From positions 22,863 to 86,862 of the forward strand of contig JBDKUN010000009.1 of the NCBI GenBank assembly GCA_039679675.1: a stretch of DNA of 64,000 bases, read 5' to 3'. Below are positions 3,738 through 15,211 of the stretch, in pieces. The stretch comes from Armatimonadota bacterium. Its GTDB lineage: Bacteria > Armatimonadota > UBA5829 > DTLH01. The position numbers were made by a program, and so were the translations under genes. Under the pieces are notes generated by a model. That model had not been told where the DNA came from, searched no databases, and saw only the letters and a list, made by a program, of their open reading frames with translations. Within the stretch, counting starts at the first letter, position 1. The number at the start of each line of letters is the position of its first letter.

Positions 3738-4511
3738 ATGAAAGTAGCTCCAGTCAAGAAATATATTGATCCAAAATATCCCACCAGCCGAATTTTGGAG
3801 GAACATCCTGAACTGCTGAAGCTCGTTCCGAAAAGATGGCAGGGAAATGCAGTGGTGCTCACCGCGCTTGCCAGTGCCTGCATCCTGTCCGCATGCCTGC
3901 AAAAGGGATCTGCTGCAAAACAAGTTTCTAGAACAGACCTGGAGTTCCGACATAGTGAAAAACGGGCAGTATTCCTAGGAGGCAGGGTTATGACCCCACC
4001 CGTTTTTCTCTCAGAGGATGAAGCCAGGGCGGTCATTGTGGACGAAGCAAAACGTGCGAGTATTACATTCAAAGCTGATGGGCAGAAGCTCAGCAAGTCC
4101 AGTGTTCCAGAGTTGAAGCCTTTCCTGCCACTCGTGTTCGACGGATATGATAAGAAACACAAAATATCCTATGAGGTCGTCTCTATGTCGGATTTTAAAA
4201 ACTGGAACAAAAAGATCCAGCCCGCTATACAGTCGTCCTACGGCACAAAAGAAATGGCTAAGCGGCTTAAAGGCGCACTTGTTAAGGTCAAATCAGGGGG
4301 CTACTACGCAGTCTTCTATAGCCCCGGCGAATCTCGTGAAGCTGCAAAGAAGCACTATGGTTACAAGCAACCGGCCTATGACGCAAAGGATGTGGACTGG
4401 CAAGCGGAGAACGCCAAAATTTTGGAAATGACAAAGGACCTGGCAAGAAAAGACCTGCGTAAACAGGTCAAAGACTTCATAAGCTGGCTGAAGGCTGAGG
4501 GAGTTATCTGA
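3738..4511 (+). CDS. Radical SAM-associated exported protein, paralog 1 (putative lipoprotein)
   Basis: GGAGG RBS before ATG 3738. Leader MKVAPVKKYIDPKYPT, hydrophobic stretch ending LSAC, PPVFLSEDEA, and C-terminus QVKDFISWLKAEGVI, all shared with the next two ORFs. Confidence 0.75.
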   Translation: MKVAPVKKYIDPKYPTSRILEEHPELLKLVPKRWQGNAVVLTALASACILSACLQKGSAAKQVSRTDLEFRHSEKRAVFLGGRVMTPPVFLSEDEARAVIVDEAKRASITFKADGQKLSKSSVPELKPFLPLVFDGYDKKHKISYEVVSMSDFKNWNKKIQPAIQSSYGTKEMAKRLKGALVKVKSGGYYAVFYSPGESREAAKKHYGYKQPAYDAKDVDWQAENAKILEMTKDLARKDLRKQVKDFISWLKAEGVI

Positions 4512-4576
4512 TACGAACATTTCTGTCAACAGATGCGTCATAAATCTATGGCATGTTTCGTGATGGAGGCATATTT

Positions 4577-5437
4577 ATGAGAGTTTCTCCTGTCAAAAGC
4601 TATATCGAACCCAAATACCCCACCAGCCGGATTTTGGAAGAACATCCTGAACTGCTGAAGCTGGTTCCGAAGAGGTGGCAGAGGAACGCTGTAGTGCTGA
4701 CAGCTCTTGCGGGTGTCTGCTTTCTTTCGACCGGCTTGAAGGCTCAAACGGATGCGAAATCCTCAAAACAGGCAGTACCAGATAAAAAGCCTGCGGCATC
4801 GAAAGCTATGATAGCTCCCATATTCAAGCATGGCGACGGATTCGGAGCGTTTGGATGTATAGCGGTGAACCCGCCGGTATTTCTTTCGGAAGAGGAAGCC
4901 CGCCAGGTCATTGTTGAAGAAGCCAAGCGTGCAGGGATTATATTCAAAGCCGATGGGCGCGAAGTACGTAACATAAAAATGGAAGTTGTGGACACTGAAA
5001 CCCTTGATGACAGTTACCGCCCAAAGCCAAAGCCCAAGAATCTGAATCTTGTGCTCGATGGTTATGATCAAAAGCACAACATTTCCTATGAATACCTCTC
5101 TGAATCGGATCATAAAGCCTGGAACCTCGATACATCGTGTGGAACCGTGATCGACTACGATATGAAGGGAAATGCGGTAAATCTTGTATCCGCATTAGCA
5201 GCAGCGAAACCCGCTGGGACATTTGCTGTTTTCTACGATCCTTGCATGGGCCGTGTCGAAGTCAAACAGCAACTTAATGGGAAGAGCGATAAGGAAATTG
5301 ACCCCTGGGATTTCAGTAATGAAGGTCCCGAATTTTGGAAAACTGTTGATGTTAAGGCCAAAGATCTTGCACGTGAAGCACTTCGCAATCAGGTCAAAGA
5401 CTTCATAAGCTGGCTAAAGGCTGAGGGAGTTATTTAG
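4577..5437 (+). CDS. Radical SAM-associated exported protein, paralog 2
   Basis: GGAGG RBS before ATG 4577. Same leader and C-terminus as paralog 1; carries HGDGFGAFGCIAVNPPVFLSEEEA. Confidence 0.75.
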   Translation: MRVSPVKSYIEPKYPTSRILEEHPELLKLVPKRWQRNAVVLTALAGVCFLSTGLKAQTDAKSSKQAVPDKKPAASKAMIAPIFKHGDGFGAFGCIAVNPPVFLSEEEARQVIVEEAKRAGIIFKADGREVRNIKMEVVDTETLDDSYRPKPKPKNLNLVLDGYDQKHNISYEYLSESDHKAWNLDTSCGTVIDYDMKGNAVNLVSALAAAKPAGTFAVFYDPCMGRVEVKQQLNGKSDKEIDPWDFSNEGPEFWKTVDVKAKDLAREALRNQVKDFISWLKAEGVI

Positions 5438-5457
5438 ACATCAAGGGAGGCATACCA

Positions 5458-6231
5458 ATGAAAGTAGCTCCAGTCAAGAAATATATCGAACCGAGATATC
5501 CTACCAGTCAGATATTAGAGGAGCATCCTGAATTACTGAAGATTATCCCGAAGAGGTGGCAGGGAAATACAATGGTCTTAACTACCCTTGCGGGGCTCTG
5601 CATCCTGTCCTCATGCCTGCAAAAGGAGTCTGCTGCAAAACAGGCTCCCGGGACAACTCCAGCGTCTCAGCAAGGTAAGAAACGTGCAAGGCTCATGGGC
5701 TTGCCTGCGATACCACCCGTCTTTCTTTCAGAAGATGAAGCCAGAGAGGTCATTGTGGACGAAGCAAAACGCGCAGGAATTACGTTCAAAGCCGATGGAC
5801 ACGAGTTCATCGAGTCCAATACCCCGGAACTAAAACCTTACCTGCCTCTCGTATTCGACGGATATGATGAGAAATACAAAATATCCTATGAGGTCGTCTC
5901 TATGTCGGACTTCAAAAACTGGAATACCATAAAGATCCAACCTGCTATACAGTCGTCCTACGATACGAAAGAAATGGCTAAGCGGCTTAAGGACGCACTT
6001 GTTAAAGCTAAATCGGGAGGCTACTATGTAGTTTTCTATAGTCCCGGCGAATACCGTGAAGCTGCAAAGAAGCACTACGGTTACAAGCAACCGGCCTATG
6101 ACGCAAAGGATGTGGACTGGCAAGCGGAGAACGCCAAAATCTTGGAAATGACAAAGGACCTGGCAAGAGAAGACCTTCGCAATCAGGTCAAAGACTTCAT
6201 AAGCTGGCTTAAGGCTGAGGGAGTTATCTGA
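5458..6231 (+). CDS. Radical SAM-associated exported protein, paralog 3 (putative lipoprotein)
   Basis: Close copy of paralog 1 at both DNA and protein level. LSSC lipobox-like motif. Stop codon 1 nt before the rSAM start. Confidence 0.75.
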   Translation: MKVAPVKKYIEPRYPTSQILEEHPELLKIIPKRWQGNTMVLTTLAGLCILSSCLQKESAAKQAPGTTPASQQGKKRARLMGLPAIPPVFLSEDEAREVIVDEAKRAGITFKADGHEFIESNTPELKPYLPLVFDGYDEKYKISYEVVSMSDFKNWNTIKIQPAIQSSYDTKEMAKRLKDALVKAKSGGYYVVFYSPGEYREAAKKHYGYKQPAYDAKDVDWQAENAKILEMTKDLAREDLRNQVKDFISWLKAEGVI

Positions 6232-6232
6232 C

Positions 6233-7369
6233 ATGCATCTGACACTGCACTTAACGGCGCGATGTAACCTCCGTTGCCGCTACTGCTACGCCGAGCCTCA
6301 TAGCGGCGGCGACATGACGCTCGATACCATAAAATCGGCCATTTCGATGGCCATGAACGATAAAAAGACGCCTGATGAGAGCCTGGGAGTCATATTCTTC
6401 GGCGGTGAGCCGCTCTTGAAGCGCGACCTCATAGCCGAGACCGTCCGGCACTGCCGCCGGATTGAAGCCGAAACAGGCCAGATGTTCCATTTCAAGATGA
6501 CGACGAACGGAACGCTGCTCGATGAGGAGTTTTTGACCAATCCTGACACTTCCGGCATATTCGTCGCCTTGAGCCATGACGGAATACGTTCAGCTCACGA
6601 TATGAACAGGCTGGATGCCGAAGGAAAAGGCTCTTTCGACGCGCTGGAGCCGAAGATCAACCTGCTGCTCTCCCGCAGGCCTTACGCGCCGGTCATGATG
6701 GTCATCACCCCGGATACTGTGCGCTGGTATGCCGATTCGGTGAAGTATCTTTACGGGCGGGGGTTCAAGTATCTCATTTGCTCGCTCAATTATGGCGCGG
6801 AGTGGACCGAGAGACATGTTGCGGAGCTTGGCAGGCAGTATAACAAGCTCGCTGGCTGGTACTATGAGGAGATACTGAAAGAAGAAAAGTTCTATTTCAG
6901 CCCGTTCGAAGTGAAAATAGCCTCGCATGTCTATCCCGGAAGCTGCAAAGCGGAGCGCTGCGAACTCGGAAAGACCCAGATTTCGGTCGCACCGAACGGC
7001 AGGCTGTATCCATGCGTGCAGTTTGTCGGAGATGGCTCTGACGAAAAGTATGCCATCGGCCATGTGAAGCTGGGAGTTGACGAAGAAGCCCGCGCGAGAC
7101 TTTATGCGTGGAACGGGGAGGAAAAATCGACCTGCGCCGAGTGCGCCATACGTGAGAGGTGCAACCACTACTGCGGATGTCTGAACAAGCAGGCCACAGG
7201 GAGTATCGACCAGGTCTCCCCGATGCTCTGCGTCCACGAAAGGACTATTCTCCCGATAGCGGACCGCCTGGCAGAACGGCTGTTCAAGCGGCGAGACCCT
7301 CTCTTCATCCAGAAGCACTACAACGACATGTTCCCGCTGATCTCGCTGGTCGAGGACAGGACGGGGTAA
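6233..7369 (+). CDS. Radical SAM/SPASM domain protein (maturase-like)
   Basis: CNLRCRYC, FFGGEPLL and MTTNGTLL motifs. SPASM cysteines CELG...YPC...CAECAIRERCNHYCGC...C. Confidence 0.9.
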   Translation: MHLTLHLTARCNLRCRYCYAEPHSGGDMTLDTIKSAISMAMNDKKTPDESLGVIFFGGEPLLKRDLIAETVRHCRRIEAETGQMFHFKMTTNGTLLDEEFLTNPDTSGIFVALSHDGIRSAHDMNRLDAEGKGSFDALEPKINLLLSRRPYAPVMMVITPDTVRWYADSVKYLYGRGFKYLICSLNYGAEWTERHVAELGRQYNKLAGWYYEEILKEEKFYFSPFEVKIASHVYPGSCKAERCELGKTQISVAPNGRLYPCVQFVGDGSDEKYAIGHVKLGVDEEARARLYAWNGEEKSTCAECAIRERCNHYCGCLNKQATGSIDQVSPMLCVHERTILPIADRLAERLFKRRDPLFIQKHYNDMFPLISLVEDRTG

Positions 7370-7412
7370 GAGTTCGGAGTTGATGAGTATAACATCATGT
7401 TGAACTACCACA

Positions 7413-7478
7413 ACGTCATTCCGAGCTTGACTCGGAATCCAGGAAAAACTGGACCCTGAATCAAGTTCAGGGTGACGT
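7413..7478. repeat. Palindromic MITE/REP-like element (GTCATTCC...GGAATCCAG...CTGGAC...GGGTGAC type)
   Basis: ACGTCA...TGACGT outer arms. Inner hairpins ATTCCGAG-cttga-CTCGGAAT and CCCTGAA-tcaag-TTCAGGG. Confidence 0.7.
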
Positions 7479-7596
7479 GCTGGTTGTTCAGGGTGATGTC
7501 TTTCCATGATGACAGCTTGATGTACAATCTCTCATTAAGAGTGAACTCCTTACGGTACAAGTTGAACAATGCTCCTGACTTGGGTAAACTGTAGCT

Positions 7597-8682
7597 ATGA
7601 AGCACATCGAACACCGAGATTTTATCCCTAGGCTTGTCTTCTGGGAGACCACTGCTGCATGTAACCTGAAATGTATCCACTGCCGGGCATCGGCTGTCGG
7701 TTCCCGTCCCCCAGGCGAGCTCACGGCTGGGGAATCATTCGCGCTGCTGGACTCCATAGCATCGTTTGCCAGACCTGTCGTAGTCCTTTCGGGCGGAGAG
7801 CCGCTTGTGCGGGAAGACATCTTCGAGATCGCCAATTACGGCGCGTCACTTGGGCTAAGGATGGTGCTCGCGACGAATGGGACGCTCGTGACCCGCGAGA
7901 CCGCGCACCGGATGAAAGAGTCGGGAGTCCAGCGGATAAGCGTGAGCATAGACGGCGCATCGGCTGCAAGTCATGACAGGTTCCGCCGCCAGAGCGGGGC
8001 GTTCGATGCAGCACTGAGAGGTATCGGGCACATCAAGGCCGAAGGCATCCAGTTTCAGATAAACACATCGGTCACAAGGCAGAACCTTGCCGAACTGCCG
8101 GATGTTCTGGACCTGGCGGTAGGTCTGGGCGCGGTCGCACTCCATATATTTCTCCTCGTCCCGACCGGGTGCGGCAAGGAGATAGCAAATGAAGAGATGA
8201 TAACTCCCGGCCAGTATGAAGAGACGCTTAACTGGTTTTATGACAGGTCCAAGGACTCGCCGGTCAAGCTCAAAGCGACCTGCGCCCCTCATTACTTCCG
8301 TATTATGCGCCAGCGCGCGGCGGAAGAAGGGATTAAAATCACTCCTGAGACTCATGGGTTCGAAGCGATGACCAAAGGCTGCCTTGCTGGCACGGCTGTC
8401 TGCTTTGTCTCGCATAGAGGGGATGTATACCCATGCGGCTACCTCCCCGCACTTGCCGGAAATATTCGCGAGACTCCTTTCCCGGAAATCTGGAAGGATT
8501 CGGAGCTGTTCCAGGAGCTGAGGGATGAATCGCTGCTTGAAGGGAAGTGCGGGCTGTGCGAGTTCAAACCAGTCTGCGGCGGATGCAGGGCGCGCGCTTA
8601 CGCTGAGGCAGGCAATTACCGCGCAGAGGAACCTTACTGCCAATATATTCCTTACCAGACCAAAAATGGAGCCGAAAACTGA
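7597..8682 (+). CDS. ahbD: Heme b synthase (AhbD/NirJ-like radical SAM)
   Basis: RLVFWETTAACNLKCIHCRASA, KATCAPHYFR, KGCLAG, CGLCEFKPVCGGCRARAYA. Confidence 0.8.
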   Translation: MKHIEHRDFIPRLVFWETTAACNLKCIHCRASAVGSRPPGELTAGESFALLDSIASFARPVVVLSGGEPLVREDIFEIANYGASLGLRMVLATNGTLVTRETAHRMKESGVQRISVSIDGASAASHDRFRRQSGAFDAALRGIGHIKAEGIQFQINTSVTRQNLAELPDVLDLAVGLGAVALHIFLLVPTGCGKEIANEEMITPGQYEETLNWFYDRSKDSPVKLKATCAPHYFRIMRQRAAEEGIKITPETHGFEAMTKGCLAGTAVCFVSHRGDVYPCGYLPALAGNIRETPFPEIWKDSELFQELRDESLLEGKCGLCEFKPVCGGCRARAYAEAGNYRAEEPYCQYIPYQTKNGAEN

Positions 8683-10426: not shown

Positions 10427-13400
10427 ATGCGTAGAAACCCACGTACCATATCAGCGTACAAGCTTACGCTGATCGCATCGATGATGATCCTGGTCCTCTG
10501 TGCAGGGGTTTCATTTGCACAGACAGAGTGGACACAGTGGCATTACTATGTCGATGTCAATGTCAACACCGGACCATATGCTAGAACAGCTACTCCGGTG
10601 GAACTTCAGATCAACTTCACCAATTACCTGAATGGTGCAACTCTGGACACAAACTCAGTAAGAGTAGCAGAGTTTGCAGACAGTGGTAGAAATGGCACAC
10701 CGCTAGAGGTAGTTAGCCAGTTTGACCAGGGCTCCGGGTTTAATGCAGTCACAAATGCATCTGGAGAGGTAGTTTGGATCTTAAGGGGTAATAATACTGA
10801 TCCTAATGCTCTCGGAGCAGTCGTCGATCCAACCCCTGCGAATACGACCAGATACTACAGGGTCTATTTCGACGATACCAATAACGGAAAGTCAGCTCCG
10901 AATTATACCACCGATTTTGCCAATGCTACACTTGAGGTATCTCCTGCTGCTGATTGGACTACAGCTACAACTGGATCGACTCCGCATATACAGTCGATAG
11001 GCAACTATGAGGTCTGGTTTAGATCCAGCAATGGAAGTATGTGGCAGATGGACAACAGACGTGTCACCCCGAGCGACCTGAAGTTGGTCAGTGGCTCTTC
11101 CACAGGAGGTATATATACTGCAGGAACATACTATGGTTCAAGTGATAATGGAGGTGAGGCTGATTCATACTATGGATCAAAGAACTATTTTACAAGGTCT
11201 GCGAACACAGCAGTTCGCTGCACAGTCGTTGTAAACAGGACAGCCACAGCAAGTGTCGCCAGCCTGAATCATAACATAACCATAGAACGTAAGTTTTATG
11301 CAGGAGTTCCCTATTTCAAAAATCACGTGACTATTGCCAGGAACTCAGGCGGCAATGGCTTTTTCAATTATGCAATGTTCCGCACTACCTGGAGCACTAC
11401 AGCCCCGTCAAGAACATTAGTAGCGCTGGACCCTGTAGCTGACCCTGTTACAGGAGGCGATTTGCCTTACAGCGCGTACTTCGACTGGAGCGATGATAGA
11501 GCAGGATTCGCCGTACTCGGATCTGCCAGCTTTATGCCGAACTCTACTAACGATCTTGCTAGCGGAACGAATGGCTATCGTGGATATTATGCTACCACTA
11601 GCCTCAACCGTTACTGGAGATTCATGCAGAGTCCGTACTACCCTATAGTTATGGATAGTGCCATAGCGATTCACACTGGAAAGACTGTGGAAACTGCCAG
11701 AGAGAGCACCCTGGAATCCCTTGAGGATTACGGCTGTCCGGTTGGTATATCGATAGTGGGAAGTAATACTGCTGCTGTAGCCTACGGCTCTATCAAAGGC
11801 AAAATAACTGATGCCCTTGATAATACCAAGCCAGTCAGAGGCGCTATGGTAAAAGTATGGGTGGACGATGTATTCTTTACCAAGACCTATACTTCTATGC
11901 TTGGTGATTTTACACTTTCCGACGTGCCTGCAGGAGCTGTGAAAGTCAGCGTCAAGTGCGATGAGTATGAGAACAAGGCAGAGACTATCGGAACACTCAC
12001 TGCAGGGAGTGTTATGGATGCTAATATCTCTCTGCAGCCTATTATCGTAGCTGGTGCTGCAGTGCCTAATTGGCGGTGGCTTACTTCGAGTGGCATTAAT
12101 GGCGGAACTCAGGTTTGGAAGCTTGCTACAGATTCAGCAGTAGCTGGAGTTGGATTCGACAATGATGTTGCGACATTCTCCGATCCGAACTACAATGACT
12201 CTGGACTTTCGACTGTAGACGTTCCTCGGGTGGATTCTCCTGCAGATAAGGTTACTACTTTAGATTGGGATGATCTTCAGACCAACCCTACAGACAATTG
12301 CTACGGCTGGTATCGCACAACAATCAATATCCCTCAAGAATGGGCTGGAAAGAACCTGAGGCTCAGGAACTTCTACATCGACGATGTGGCAGCATTTTAT
12401 TTCGACGGTCATTACATCGGCCAAACGGGATCATTCCCGAATGCATCCGATCCGCGTAATACGGCAGCAGCAAACGGATATGTCGGACACGCAAATTTCC
12501 CCAATGACTTTATCATTCCGGGAGATTGGTTAAAAGAGTCCGGAGATAAAGTGCTTGCAATCAAGGTATTTGATGCTACTGGTAACGGCGGAATAACTGG
12601 AACTGCTCCGCTTCTTGAGGTCGCGCCTTCCATGGCCACAGTGACAGTGAATGTCACAGGACCTCACAACTACGGTGAAACTCCACTTCCCATAGAGGGA
12701 GCAACAGTTCAGGTTGTCGGCTTTACATCCGGCACGACTGATGCAGATGGTAATTGCACGTTCAACACACTTCCTGGCGACAGCTATACCATAACAGTCA
12801 CCCATCCCAACCATGGGACAAAGACAATTACAAACGTCGAAATCCCGGATGCCGGATCAATTACTATTCCGGTTACATATGATGCTATATACCCGGTCGT
12901 GACGGTGAATGTCACAGGGTCTCAGACCTACAACGGGCCCAAGCTTCCTGTCGAGGGAGCGAAGGTATCGTTCGGCGGATCATCGGGTACGACGGATGCA
13001 GATGGTAACTGCACATATGACAAGACGATTGCCCCCGGCTTCTACACCGTAACAGTCAACCATCCCAACTATGGGACAAAGACTCTTACGAATGTCGAAG
13101 TCCCGGCAACCCCATCAGTCACTATTCCTGTTGTGTATGATAATGTCCTCTGCAAGGTGACAGGCACAGTCACGAAGAATGGCTTGCCGCTTGCCAGCGC
13201 TCGTGTAGTGGTTGCTAATGGCAGCAGCTCCTTTACAGGTATTACGAACTCCAGCGGCGCATATACCATTACAGGCGTCATAGCTGGAGACTACAAGCTC
13301 ACTGTTAACGCATTGAAGGCTATGCCGGTAATAGATAAACCGGTTCAGGTATATGCAATGCAGGTAGCGGTGGATAATGTAGACCTGCAATATGGAGTCA

Positions 13401-15211
13401 CTCCTATATATGATGACTTCTCGGGAGCCGCTCTCGATGAGAGCAAGTGGGGATTCTACAATACATCGGAGCAGGGGTTAGGCAATTCTACAGCTACACT
13501 GGTCGATGGTGTACTCAATCTCTATCCTATACCAGGACGAGGCGGTATCTTAAGTAAGACAGTTGTCCCCAAATATGGGACGTCTGAAGTATTATTCACT
13601 CGAGCAGCCACTGGGACAAACCAGGGGTTTGCCATCATAGACCCGACCTATACAGGCGGAGACATATATAACCATGGCGTCTGCTTTGAGCAGGAAGGCT
13701 ACTTCATAAAGGTCTTCCTTTGCGGCGCTTGCAATTGGCAGGTTTCGAATAGCACTTATCCTGTAAGAGTGTCTATCCTTAGAACAGGCGACTACTACGA
13801 TGCCTATGTGAACGGCGGATGGTCCGGATACTTGGGCAAAATGTCTGTAGACTCGGCCACAGGTAAGGCATATCTTGCAGATAATGCACAGATCTACCTT
13901 AACGGATACAGGTTAGCCATGACTAACACAACGATCGGCTATTTTGATGAGGTGAAAGCAGGCGAAACAATACCTGTAACACCATCAACAGTTGCCGGAG
14001 CAAGAACCGCAGCAGGTGGTTCGATGCTTAGCGTCTCAGGCGCAGTTGTAACAGCAAGCTATGACAACTACTTCTTTATAGAGAACACAGACCGCTCTGC
14101 AGGTATAAAGGTTATCTCAACAGCCAAGCCTGCAGTAGGCAAGGTTGTGTCCATAGCAGGAAGCATAGTTAAAGCTGACAATGAAGTAGCCATCAAGCCG
14201 ATCGATGCTACATACTCTGATGATCCTAATAAAGCAGTTCCCCCACCTGTAGCAATAACAGGCAAGGTAGCAGGAGAGCTCGACAAGGCCGGAGCTGCTG
14301 CACAGGGAATGATTGTCAAGGTTGCAGGGACCGTAACCGGTCTCCACACCAACACTGACAACAATGTAGACGGTTACTTCCTCGATGACGGAAGCGGAAT
14401 CGTTGGAGACGGGACCCACAAGGGAATCTTCGTTGAGATGGATCCTACATGGGGAACAAACAGCAGCGTAATAGGCAAGTTCAAGACAATAGTGAGCCCG
14501 CTTACAGTAAAGAAGATAAGTGATACTGTTGTCCTTCCTGCAGTGAAGGGTGAGCTGGAAGCAATCCCGACATTCACTGCATATAACGACTGCTGCTGGT
14601 CAGATGGCCAGACAAGCGGCAACATTACTACTTATGGAACAGGTACAGGCTCTACAGGAGCCTCAACCGGATTCCTTAAAGACTATGTAACAGGAGTTTC
14701 ATTCCCTGTTACAGCGACATTCACACCGTCCGGTGATGTATCTTGTGTAACTGCCGGAGGAGCTAACTGTATAGACGGCTCAGATGCAGCCAATGTCTTT
14801 GGCGGCAAGGTAGACTTCACCGGATACATCAACTGCAATACGGCTGCTGCATATGTAGAACTTACCTTCAGCGGGCTCGACCCCAATGGAAGCTATGAGT
14901 TTACAACTACAGCAAATGCAGGTGGCAGCTTAATGACACCTATGAGATATACCATCTCAGGAGCCCTGAGCTTTACCAACGCAAGCTCCAGCGACGCCAT
15001 AATAAGCACAGATGGTACATACACAGAGTTCGATACGGGCAGCAACACTGGTTATTCCATGGGTTCGGTCTATGGCGGCTATATAGCCAAATGGACCGGC
15101 ATCAAGCCATCTGCAGCAGGCACGTTCACCATAAAGGCGAGCCTGGGGGATAACAACTCAAATCTGTCCGGAGCAGTATTCAGTGGCTTCATGCTGAAGA
15201 AAGCTCAATAA
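10427..15211 (+). CDS. Large secreted multidomain protein (sugar-binding jelly-roll, carboxypeptidase-regulatory-like repeats, tandem C-terminal domain)
   Basis: Signal peptide and AAAGGAG RBS. WYRTTINIPQEWAGKNLRL...IDD motif of GH2-type sugar-binding domains. Duplicated TVNVTG...EGA...GTTDADGNCT...HPNxGTKT modules. Confidence 0.75.
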   Translation: MRRNPRTISAYKLTLIASMMILVLCAGVSFAQTEWTQWHYYVDVNVNTGPYARTATPVELQINFTNYLNGATLDTNSVRVAEFADSGRNGTPLEVVSQFDQGSGFNAVTNASGEVVWILRGNNTDPNALGAVVDPTPANTTRYYRVYFDDTNNGKSAPNYTTDFANATLEVSPAADWTTATTGSTPHIQSIGNYEVWFRSSNGSMWQMDNRRVTPSDLKLVSGSSTGGIYTAGTYYGSSDNGGEADSYYGSKNYFTRSANTAVRCTVVVNRTATASVASLNHNITIERKFYAGVPYFKNHVTIARNSGGNGFFNYAMFRTTWSTTAPSRTLVALDPVADPVTGGDLPYSAYFDWSDDRAGFAVLGSASFMPNSTNDLASGTNGYRGYYATTSLNRYWRFMQSPYYPIVMDSAIAIHTGKTVETARESTLESLEDYGCPVGISIVGSNTAAVAYGSIKGKITDALDNTKPVRGAMVKVWVDDVFFTKTYTSMLGDFTLSDVPAGAVKVSVKCDEYENKAETIGTLTAGSVMDANISLQPIIVAGAAVPNWRWLTSSGINGGTQVWKLATDSAVAGVGFDNDVATFSDPNYNDSGLSTVDVPRVDSPADKVTTLDWDDLQTNPTDNCYGWYRTTINIPQEWAGKNLRLRNFYIDDVAAFYFDGHYIGQTGSFPNASDPRNTAAANGYVGHANFPNDFIIPGDWLKESGDKVLAIKVFDATGNGGITGTAPLLEVAPSMATVTVNVTGPHNYGETPLPIEGATVQVVGFTSGTTDADGNCTFNTLPGDSYTITVTHPNHGTKTITNVEIPDAGSITIPVTYDAIYPVVTVNVTGSQTYNGPKLPVEGAKVSFGGSSGTTDADGNCTYDKTIAPGFYTVTVNHPNYGTKTLTNVEVPATPSVTIPVVYDNVLCKVTGTVTKNGLPLASARVVVANGSSSFTGITNSSGAYTITGVIAGDYKLTVNALKAMPVIDKPVQVYAMQVAVDNVDLQYGVTPIYDDFSGAALDESKWGFYNTSEQGLGNSTATLVDGVLNLYPIPGRGGILSKTVVPKYGTSEVLFTRAATGTNQGFAIIDPTYTGGDIYNHGVCFEQEGYFIKVFLCGACNWQVSNSTYPVRVSILRTGDYYDAYVNGGWSGYLGKMSVDSATGKAYLADNAQIYLNGYRLAMTNTTIGYFDEVKAGETIPVTPSTVAGARTAAGGSMLSVSGAVVTASYDNYFFIENTDRSAGIKVISTAKPAVGKVVSIAGSIVKADNEVAIKPIDATYSDDPNKAVPPPVAITGKVAGELDKAGAAAQGMIVKVAGTVTGLHTNTDNNVDGYFLDDGSGIVGDGTHKGIFVEMDPTWGTNSSVIGKFKTIVSPLTVKKISDTVVLPAVKGELEAIPTFTAYNDCCWSDGQTSGNITTYGTGTGSTGASTGFLKDYVTGVSFPVTATFTPSGDVSCVTAGGANCIDGSDAANVFGGKVDFTGYINCNTAAAYVELTFSGLDPNGSYEFTTTANAGGSLMTPMRYTISGALSFTNASSSDAIISTDGTYTEFDTGSNTGYSMGSVYGGYIAKWTGIKPSAAGTFTIKASLGDNNSNLSGAVFSGFMLKKAQ

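Follow-up and report, generated by a model that had tools for sequence, protein, structure and literature searches.

A leader-bearing family of predicted exported proteins coupled to a radical SAM/SPASM enzyme that lacks a RiPP recognition element

Why should three tandem genes for apparently exported proteins share one N-terminal tag and run directly into a gene for a radical S-adenosylmethionine (SAM) enzyme? This question is raised by positions 3738 to 7369 of a 64,000-nucleotide stretch (hereafter the window) of contig JBDKUN010000009.1 from an Armatimonadota bacterium. A first-pass annotation had seen there a candidate novel system, in which the shared N-terminus is a leader that recruits the enzyme and the segment before a conserved PPVFLSE is modified prior to export. 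We found that the enzyme and the leader-bearing proteins are a coupled, widespread and uncharacterised module outside the curated families, as that annotation had supposed; recruitment by the leader and modification of the pre-PPVFLSE segment are what we infer from sequence comparison. We put at about 0.8 the probability of a modification by the enzyme, before export, in a glycine/cysteine (Gly/Cys) segment of the tagged proteins, and consider the chances roughly even that the modification would be a cysteine thioether, in the second paralog only.

The four genes, all on the forward strand, lie where they had been placed. Paralog 1 (3738-4511, 257 amino acids), paralog 2 (4577-5437, 286 amino acids) and paralog 3 (5458-6231, 257 amino acids) precede the enzyme gene (6233-7369, 378 amino acids), whose ATG is 1 nt past the stop codon of paralog 3; paralogs 3 and 2 are 80% and 55% identical to paralog 1, respectively. 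A GGAGG ribosome-binding site lies 7-8 nt ahead of the ATG in all three paralogs. The EGVI codons that close paralog 3 (6217-6231) read GAGGGAG 9 nt before the enzyme start, which makes them the likely ribosome-binding site of the enzyme gene, and the conserved protein end may therefore serve twice.

The coupling of the two genes extends far beyond the window. We examined the best 80 loci of at least 554 confirmed relatives of the enzyme in GTDB genomes, whose record titles cover more than a dozen phyla, and 79 carry a match to the paralog family within 6 kb, always on the enzyme's strand (in one, L064, the match is to the leader only). The family gene lies within 50 nt upstream of the enzyme in 67 of these loci (with a gap of -1 or +1 nt in 38 of the 67), further upstream in eight and downstream in four; the exception, L075, has a divergent tag-bearing open reading frame (ORF) instead. 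A survey of metagenomes that began from the family kept 78 loci of 244 matches, many of them near-copies and thus not independent, and the enzyme was present in 66 of them; in the remaining 12 the contig runs out no more than 234 nt downstream. No third conserved neighbour emerged from the 3,459 ORFs flanking the 80 GTDB loci, which held only lineage synteny (at most eight loci) and common families.

Within the phylum, 12 of 301 genomes match the family and 18 match the enzyme at E<=1e-60, and all ten with a full-length family member have the enzyme adjacent; the enzyme-bearing genomes G236 and G302 also have family genes sited away from it. A hidden Markov model (HMM) of the leader matched 15 of the 301 genomes at E<=3e-4, and these are the same 15 in which the enzyme reaches at least 266 bits. 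Most tags of those 15 genomes were in the HMM query, and the informative part of this result is the 286 genomes without such a match. Five weaker matches in other genomes (E 9e-4 to 9.5e-3) are partial, two of them with stop codons, and were treated as noise. A conserved leader that co-occurs only with its enzyme follows the logic of precursors of peptides that are made by ribosomes and modified post-translationally (RiPPs), and leader-bearing homologs independent of the enzyme were not found in these genomes or in the GTDB and metagenome loci. Two genomes of one genus, G054 and G271 (98% and 90% complete), encode a leaderless, Cys-less form of the domain and have neither the tag nor the enzyme (at E<=1e-20); they constitute one natural control event for leader loss with enzyme loss. 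These versions of the domain, which are of lipoprotein type, are at L013 (853-1872) and L014 (826-1857), downstream of a gene that we take, by eye from its sequence, to be RNase PH-like. The nearest relatives of the window's enzyme are from Armatimonadota, and the module is in none of the four other genomes of the window's own taxonomic family, which suggests patchy, mobile inheritance. A description of the module was not found in a search of the running text of papers, mostly outside the subscription journals, and the clade could be listed in the radical SAM compendium of PMC10288494 or in PMC13692751's Supplemental Data set 1; PMC8939145, in its accessible part, treats other SPASM neighbourhoods.

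What the three proteins share at the N-terminus is 35 residues, slightly more than the approximately 33 noted at first. The leader occupies 3738..3842 in paralog 1 (MxIxPVxxYxxPxYP, then HPELLxxxPxRW) and 4577..4681 in paralog 2, and its codons differ mainly by silent changes (of the 35, 10-12 differ synonymously and 4-7 non-synonymously). The likeness is no accident: searched against the 39,242 open frames of the genome, the leader HMM found the three paralogs at E about 1e-19 to 1e-20 and everything else above E 0.15. The YxxP, which had been noted as a recognition motif of several RiPP leaders, is present (weighted conservation across the family of 81% for Y9 and 95% for P12); however, the PxYP and PxRW elements are the stronger ones, with P15 at 97%, P31 at 99%, R33 at 93% and W34 at 99% (P5 is at 87%), and P15, P31 and W34 each exceed both YxxP residues. 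A twin-arginine (Tat) reading of PxRW was ruled out, as the first basic position is variable (K 37%, R 17%, E 13%).

The tag is followed by the signal-like hydrophobic stretch originally described (residues about 38-53), where hydropathy peaks at about 2.1-2.3 over residues 38-54. In paralog 1 this region (3852..3896) ends in a lipobox-like LSAC (Cys53), from which export and lipidation are predicted; paralog 3 has LSSC and paralog 2 has no lipobox. Across the family a strict lipobox occurs in 129 of 362 distinct signal regions, and in several members an envelope-type PF07833 (Cu_amine_oxidN1) domain is inserted ahead of the last helix. From these features the paralogs are likely exported proteins.

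By its sequence, the enzyme is a radical SAM protein of the SPASM subclass. It scores 52.7 bits against PF04055 (cut-off 29.5) and 18.3 against PF13186, below the cut-off of 21.5. The cysteines of its CxxxCxxC motif (C11, C15 and C18) and eight cysteines of the SPASM region (243, 261, 301, 304, 310, 314, 316 and 333; 6959..7231) are each found in 128-129 of 129 distinct homologs. Of the eight, those equivalent to the seven of CteB are invariant and the remaining one, C316, is kept in 128; C238 is not conserved. The earlier statement that no RiPP recognition element (RRE) or PqqD domain is visible stands for the entire clade. The structure model (pLDDT, the predicted score in the local distance difference test, 92; predicted template modelling score, pTM, 0.90) opens with a barrel strand at residue 2 and ends in two helices, the open frame ahead of the match is too short for an RRE in most homologs, and no PqqD-like neighbour recurs among the flanking ORFs of the 80 loci. 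One PqqD-family match is located elsewhere in the window's genome (G000:C38:2791-2970), on another contig and unlinked to the locus.

All NCBIfam scores of the enzyme are below cut-off. The best is that of the PapB freyrasin maturase (NF047865; 232.1 against 340, residues 3-327); SCIFF (TIGR03974) reaches 156 of 425, QhpD (TIGR03906) 147 of 453, the anaerobic sulfatase-maturing enzyme (anSME, TIGR03942) 80 of 349 and CrpC (TIGR04463) 61 of 525, while the triceptide and cyclophane families of ChlB, FxsB, YhhB and DynA type give 64-107 bits against 370-450. TIGR04133, the enzyme of the radical SAM/lipoprotein system TIGR04133/TIGR04134, is absent from its best 25 families, and the paralogs have no NCBIfam match below E 0.089. 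Among solved structures the nearest is CteB, the SCIFF ranthisynthase (PDB 5WGG and 5WHY; E 3.8e-49, TM 0.78), followed by anSME (PDB 4K36-4K39; TM 0.75-0.77), ChlB and TigE (PDB 8VPO). CteB is the nearest in both sequence and fold, aligns from its residue 99 and has all seven of its SPASM ligand positions present here, but the enzyme differs from it in having no N-terminal RRE, an additional Cys316, Val in place of His363 and an extra C-terminal helix. Six catalytic-site-proximity positions, taken from the accessible part of PMC10288494, read Y19, F56, T91, S114, V262 and Q263 here and F112, F152, T186, S210, H363 and Q364 in CteB. Four of the six are identical and one is conservative, and the profile differs from those of anSME and ChlB. 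These residues lean to thioether chemistry but are not decisive.

With no RRE present, the C-terminal helices of the enzyme (YNxxYPLxSLxED tail, 7304..7360) are the candidate leader-binding element in its place. In 77 loci scored for both the tail and the PxxW of the tag, both were present in 57 and both absent in five; of the rest, three proved on inspection to be pattern misses with the tail retained, four have the tail without PxxW (one by a frameshift and three in Cloacimonadota with an altered tail) and eight had no tag called. Loss of the PxRW half of the tag goes with loss of the helix, so the helix may replace the RRE, and we expect the tail to bind that half.

The segment that the enzyme would act upon is apparent from the family's constant architecture of tag, signal-like hydrophobic stretch, variable linker, APxFxHGxGxGx[FY]GCxxxxPP, folded domain and a QVxDFIxWLKxEGVI end. 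The three motifs first reported before PPVFLSE (LGGRVMT, GFGAFGCIAVN and LMGLPAI) are as described, and they do differ among the paralogs, as the term "variable" implied; the family as a whole, however, has a strongly conserved Gly-Cys form. In a survey of 463 family sequences (442 anchored, 371 distinct segments) the canonical core was HGxGxGxFGCxxxxPP; the residue seven positions ahead of VFLSE was Cys in 303 of the 371, and Gly stood directly before that Cys in 300 of the 303. Only paralog 2 of the three keeps this form, in a core (A80-P100, 4814..4876) that comprises a predicted hairpin and Gly93-Cys94 (Cys94 codon 4856-4858) and is the best candidate modification site. The corresponding segments of paralog 1 (LGGRVMTPP, 3975..4001) and paralog 3 (LMGLPAIPP, 5692-5718) are, judged by the family alignment, derived Cys-less Gly variants. 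Position Cys+3 is V, I, T or M in 293 of the 303 segments, and Cys+4 is N in 147, A in 75, S in 44 and T in 19 (285 together).

The lean to a thioether thus draws on the nearness of CteB, on PapB, SCIFF and QhpD as the best NCBIfam families, on the site residues and on the conserved Gly-Cys core. We envisage cytoplasmic docking of the translationally coupled enzyme on the 35-residue tag, whose PxRW half would be held by the enzyme's C-terminal helix. A 5'-deoxyadenosyl radical would abstract hydrogen near Cys94, most plausibly from Val at +3 or Asn at +4, and the sulfur of Cys94 would close a ranthionine or sactionine ring (-2 Da). Tag and signal would then be removed by signal peptidase I (paralog 2) or by Lgt/Lsp (paralogs 1 and 3), and what remained would be a protein of the cell envelope whose domain is nuclease-like and may bind metal. 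On this scheme paralogs 1 and 3, as Cys-less copies, would either stay unmodified or be modified in another way.

Several observations weigh against this scheme. Two of the window's three paralogs and 68 of the 371 family segments lack the core Cys, and one partner protein contains no Cys at all. In nine genomes (G301, G303-G307, G007, G023 and G083) a genome-wide search found no Cys-core partner, yet they have an intact, adjacent enzyme that keeps its cluster cysteines; most are draft assemblies, while G304, which has five Cys-less paralogs, is a single chromosome. There is no Asp or Glu among the nine commonest Cys+4 residues, which cover 302 of the 303 segments. In the enzyme clade the position of CteB His363 is Val, Thr or Ile, and TigE, a cyclopropane synthase, matches the first four site residues as well, which means that those residues do not discriminate. 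The three CteB-equivalent ligands of auxiliary cluster I are present, but the extra C316 (128/129) could fill the site on that cluster that is left open in thioether enzymes, whose seven-Cys logic is set out in the accessible text of PMC13692751. Lastly, the covariation of leader and tail amounts to two events, as the five double losses come from two places in a quick tree with long outgroup branches.

An alternative is a leader-directed module with Cys-independent chemistry on a hydrophobic-x-Gly-x4-Pro segment, for which all three paralogs would be substrates; the reaction might be abstraction of a C-alpha hydrogen leading to epimerisation, oxidation or a C-C link, with Cys316 as a fourth cluster ligand or hydrogen donor. 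Consistent with this, Gly is more universal than Cys (300/303 Cys-type segments, and a nearby Gly in 63 of the 68 Cys-less ones), and where Cys is replaced it is by Gly in 36 of 68 segments and by Ser in one. Intact enzymes 49-64% identical to that of the window have Cys-less partners only, at several tree positions that include the window's subclade, and SPASM regions of the clade carry the eighth conserved Cys. Two Cu_amine_oxidN1 cargos beside the same enzyme clade (L040 and L042, below) repeat Leu/Met-x-Gly-x4-Pro, and one of them has no Cys. The conservation of Gly may nevertheless be structural, given the hairpin and turn in the model, and the short motif is only weakly enriched in linkers (31 occurrences, where shuffles gave 18.7 +/- 4.1 with a maximum of 34 in 1000); one clade accounts for most of this. 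Moreover, 69 of 79 GTDB loci keep a Cys-type partner: 64 have only Cys-type partners, five are mixed like the window and ten have none. Of these ten, three are broken or cut off, and L064, which had appeared to be Cys-free, was rejected as such since a Cys-type gene was found elsewhere in its genome; the other six, together with G007, G023 and G083, make up the nine genomes above. We regard Cys-independent chemistry as possible, but as a tentative alternative. Epimerisation gives no mass shift, so a mass-shift assay alone would miss it.

A quite different reaction on the same Cys would be that of anSME, in which the core Cys would be oxidised to formylglycine and so activate an exported enzyme. 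anSME is the second-nearest structure, resembles the enzyme in size, fold and the lack of an RRE, and acts on exported proteins. The partners here are not sulfatases, however, and lack the CxPxR motif by which sulfatases acquire formylglycine, as well as any Pfam match. Ser almost never replaces the core Cys (1/371). The catalytic-site residues also differ, with Val-Gln in place of the Asp-Phe that follows the first auxiliary Cys in anSME (Val262 standing for the catalytic Asp) and Phe in place of its GGEP-strand Gln, and the TIGR03942 score is 80 against a cut-off of 349. We consider formylglycine formation highly improbable.

Returning to the thioether, its precedents on whole proteins are the systems that the module would most resemble in operation. 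QhpD/QhpC and CrpC/CrpA are leader-directed SPASM systems that place thioethers in whole proteins, including at CPLV and CAGM motifs, and CrpA and CrpB, like the paralogs of the window, are tandem paralogs with a common N-terminus (PMC13692751, accessible text). According to the same text, QhpD and CrpC both use an RRE and Cys-rich substrates with multiple links, and CrpC has seven SPASM Cys. The partners here, unlike QhpC and CrpA, have one core Cys or none, and their leader is fused ahead of a Sec or lipoprotein-type signal. SCIFF is a six-Cys peptide, whereas the partner of the CteB-like enzyme here is a protein of 257-286 amino acids with a signal peptide and one core Cys. PapB gives the top NCBIfam score, but that score is below cut-off and the enzyme lacks its RRE; the acceptor motif of PapB substrates is CX3D/E, and in the family Cys+4 is N, A, S or T. 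The triceptide maturase ChlB (PDB 9GM3, 375 amino acids, leader-bound according to the PDB title) aligns from residue 12 and is therefore also without an N-terminal RRE, but it has His where Phe56 stands in the GGEP strand and forms an aromatic cyclophane, whereas the first core residue here is non-aromatic (T, I, V or L) in 44 of 303 segments. By score, RRE or motif, the module falls outside all of these families, namely QhpD, CrpC, PapB, SCIFF, anSME and the triceptides.

The paralogs gave no match better than E 0.087 in Pfam and NCBIfam and none among PDB sequences, and the paralog 2 model gave none by Foldseek at E<=0.001. A search with paralog 2 found 104 proteins among 7,999 scored candidates, and a family profile found 1,961 clusters at 50% identity, 935 of them at E<=1e-30; the window's genome holds no further member beyond the three paralogs. 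In the model of paralog 2 (pLDDT 87, pTM 0.75), residues 77-92 form a hairpin, and residues 101-286 (4877..5434) form an alpha/beta domain of possible PD-(D/E)xK (restriction-endonuclease-like) topology, which ends in the conserved amphipathic QVxDFIxWLK helix. The best structural matches of residues 104-286 were repeatedly PD-(D/E)xK nucleases (Bax1 Z 5.8, I-Bth0305I 5.2, VRR_NUC and NGO0050 5.0, Vsr 4.5), over about 90-100 residues at a root-mean-square deviation of 3.2-3.7 (5.5 for Vsr), but these Z values are in the range of common arrangements and are matched by unrelated folds. Named Atlas neighbours were mostly PD-(D/E)xK nucleases as well, below the Atlas thresholds (features 0.76-0.79, TM 0.37-0.40). 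Residues E105 (99%), D161 (95%), E172 (91%), D178 (89%) and S175 are conserved, yet the domain, predicted to be exported, has neither the Lys of ExK (no Lys at E+2, by sequence pattern rather than superposition) nor the His that Vsr-type active sites carry. The models thus offer weak indications of a PD-(D/E)xK-like fold, and an exported nuclease-like or metal-binding function is a lead only. The NCBI label "metalloprotease" on a Hungatella homolog received no support from the family or structure searches.

The C-terminal end of the paralogs had been called invariant. Its 15 residues are indeed identical in the three, and Q272, F276 and W279 are 99-100% conserved across the family; the exact identity, on the other hand, is partly the product of recent homogenisation, because there are only one or two silent differences in 15 codons. 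Members at L029 (1501-2259) and L057 (2650-3120 and 4034-4432) were seen to have lost the nuclease-like core while retaining the tag and the terminal QVxDFIxWLK helix, which suggests that the helix has a role of its own.

The first 15 tag residues are found on unrelated cargos as well, next to enzymes of the same clade. At L040 (2627-3892, reverse strand) and L042 (840-1481, forward strand) these are Cu_amine_oxidN1 proteins with a short tag and Leu/Met-x-Gly-x4-Pro repeated three to four times, and both neighbouring enzymes lack the C-terminal tail; at L064 the tag is on a 132-residue, low-complexity, disordered lipoprotein. Directly before divergent enzymes at L044 (2500-2661, reverse strand) and L045 (1269-1436, forward strand) are ORFs of 53-55 residues that comprise a tag, a lipoprotein signal, Cys and a tail of 4-6 residues, and are possible precursors of very short ribosomal lipopeptides. 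A search with the 55-residue L045 peptide returned two near-identical proteins only, among three candidates. Cys-rich small ORFs at L046 (2762-3073) and L048 (1872-2375), next to more distant SPASM enzymes (214-226 bits) of the same phylum, are probably separate ranthipeptide-like systems.

Such minimal ORFs, being nearly all tag and signal, fit a reading in which the core is not modified at all. The end product would then be the tag, or the signal peptide once released; otherwise the tag would serve as a folding clasp or an extension of the signal, and the partner would assist an enzyme whose substrate is something else. In line with a clasp, the monomer model of paralog 2 folds the leader at pLDDT 72-86 (pTM 0.75), and a weak coupling between L27 and V273 is a hint of packing between the leader and the C-terminal helix; the direct-coupling analysis (306 sequences, effective number 233) gave sensible contacts within the domain but weak leader-domain pairs, which we do not use as evidence. 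Most members, though, conserve the core motif as well as they do the tag, and it occupies the position usual in RiPPs; the L044 and L045 enzymes are outgroups with 30-32% identity, leader loss accompanies enzyme loss, and no third conserved gene points to another substrate. A module that leaves the core unmodified is, in our estimate, unlikely.

The unrelated cargos also permit a broader proposal: that a tag of 15-35 residues ahead of the signal is portable, and that it leads an RRE-less SPASM enzyme, which docks by means of its C-terminal helix, to install a new, Cys-independent backbone modification at hydrophobic-x-Gly-x4-Pro of any tagged exported protein, from 55-residue lipopeptide precursors to 400-residue envelope proteins. 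We consider this extension rather improbable. If true, it would describe a general "modify then export" system in over a dozen phyla, with Hungatella of the human gut among its carriers.

The surroundings of the locus appear to be independent of the module. An AraC regulator upstream and an AhbD heme b synthase downstream do not recur with it elsewhere; the latter (7597-8682) is a second radical SAM/SPASM gene, an ordinary AhbD (TIGR04545, 534 bits against a cut-off of 500) outside the module. Directly after the enzyme gene, at 7406-7485, is a palindromic repeat of about 75 bp with two hairpins, which resembles repetitive extragenic palindromic (REP) elements and has dozens of copies of 80-99% identity on many contigs of the genome, among the BLAST matches listed. 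A scan of the locus for promoters and terminators was at chance level. Further along, 10427-15211 encodes a secreted-looking protein of 1,594 residues, with lower GC and repeated beta-rich segments.

Few radical SAM enzymes have been validated for RiPP-type cross-links on whole proteins; the accessible text of PMC13692751 names QhpC and CrpA as such substrates and calls the validation limited. Against this background, the module is a two-gene system, widespread and without annotation, in which a RiPP leader seems to be joined to an ordinary export signal and recognised without an RRE, and it would escape genome mining that relies on RREs or on small ORFs. Because two genes suffice, a cultured strain exists (Hungatella effluvii DSM 24995) and natural controls are at hand (an operon with both Cys and Gly paralogs, variants with a short tag, and leaderless orphans), the module is directly testable. 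A transferable tag for the modification of secreted proteins would also be a possible engineering tool.

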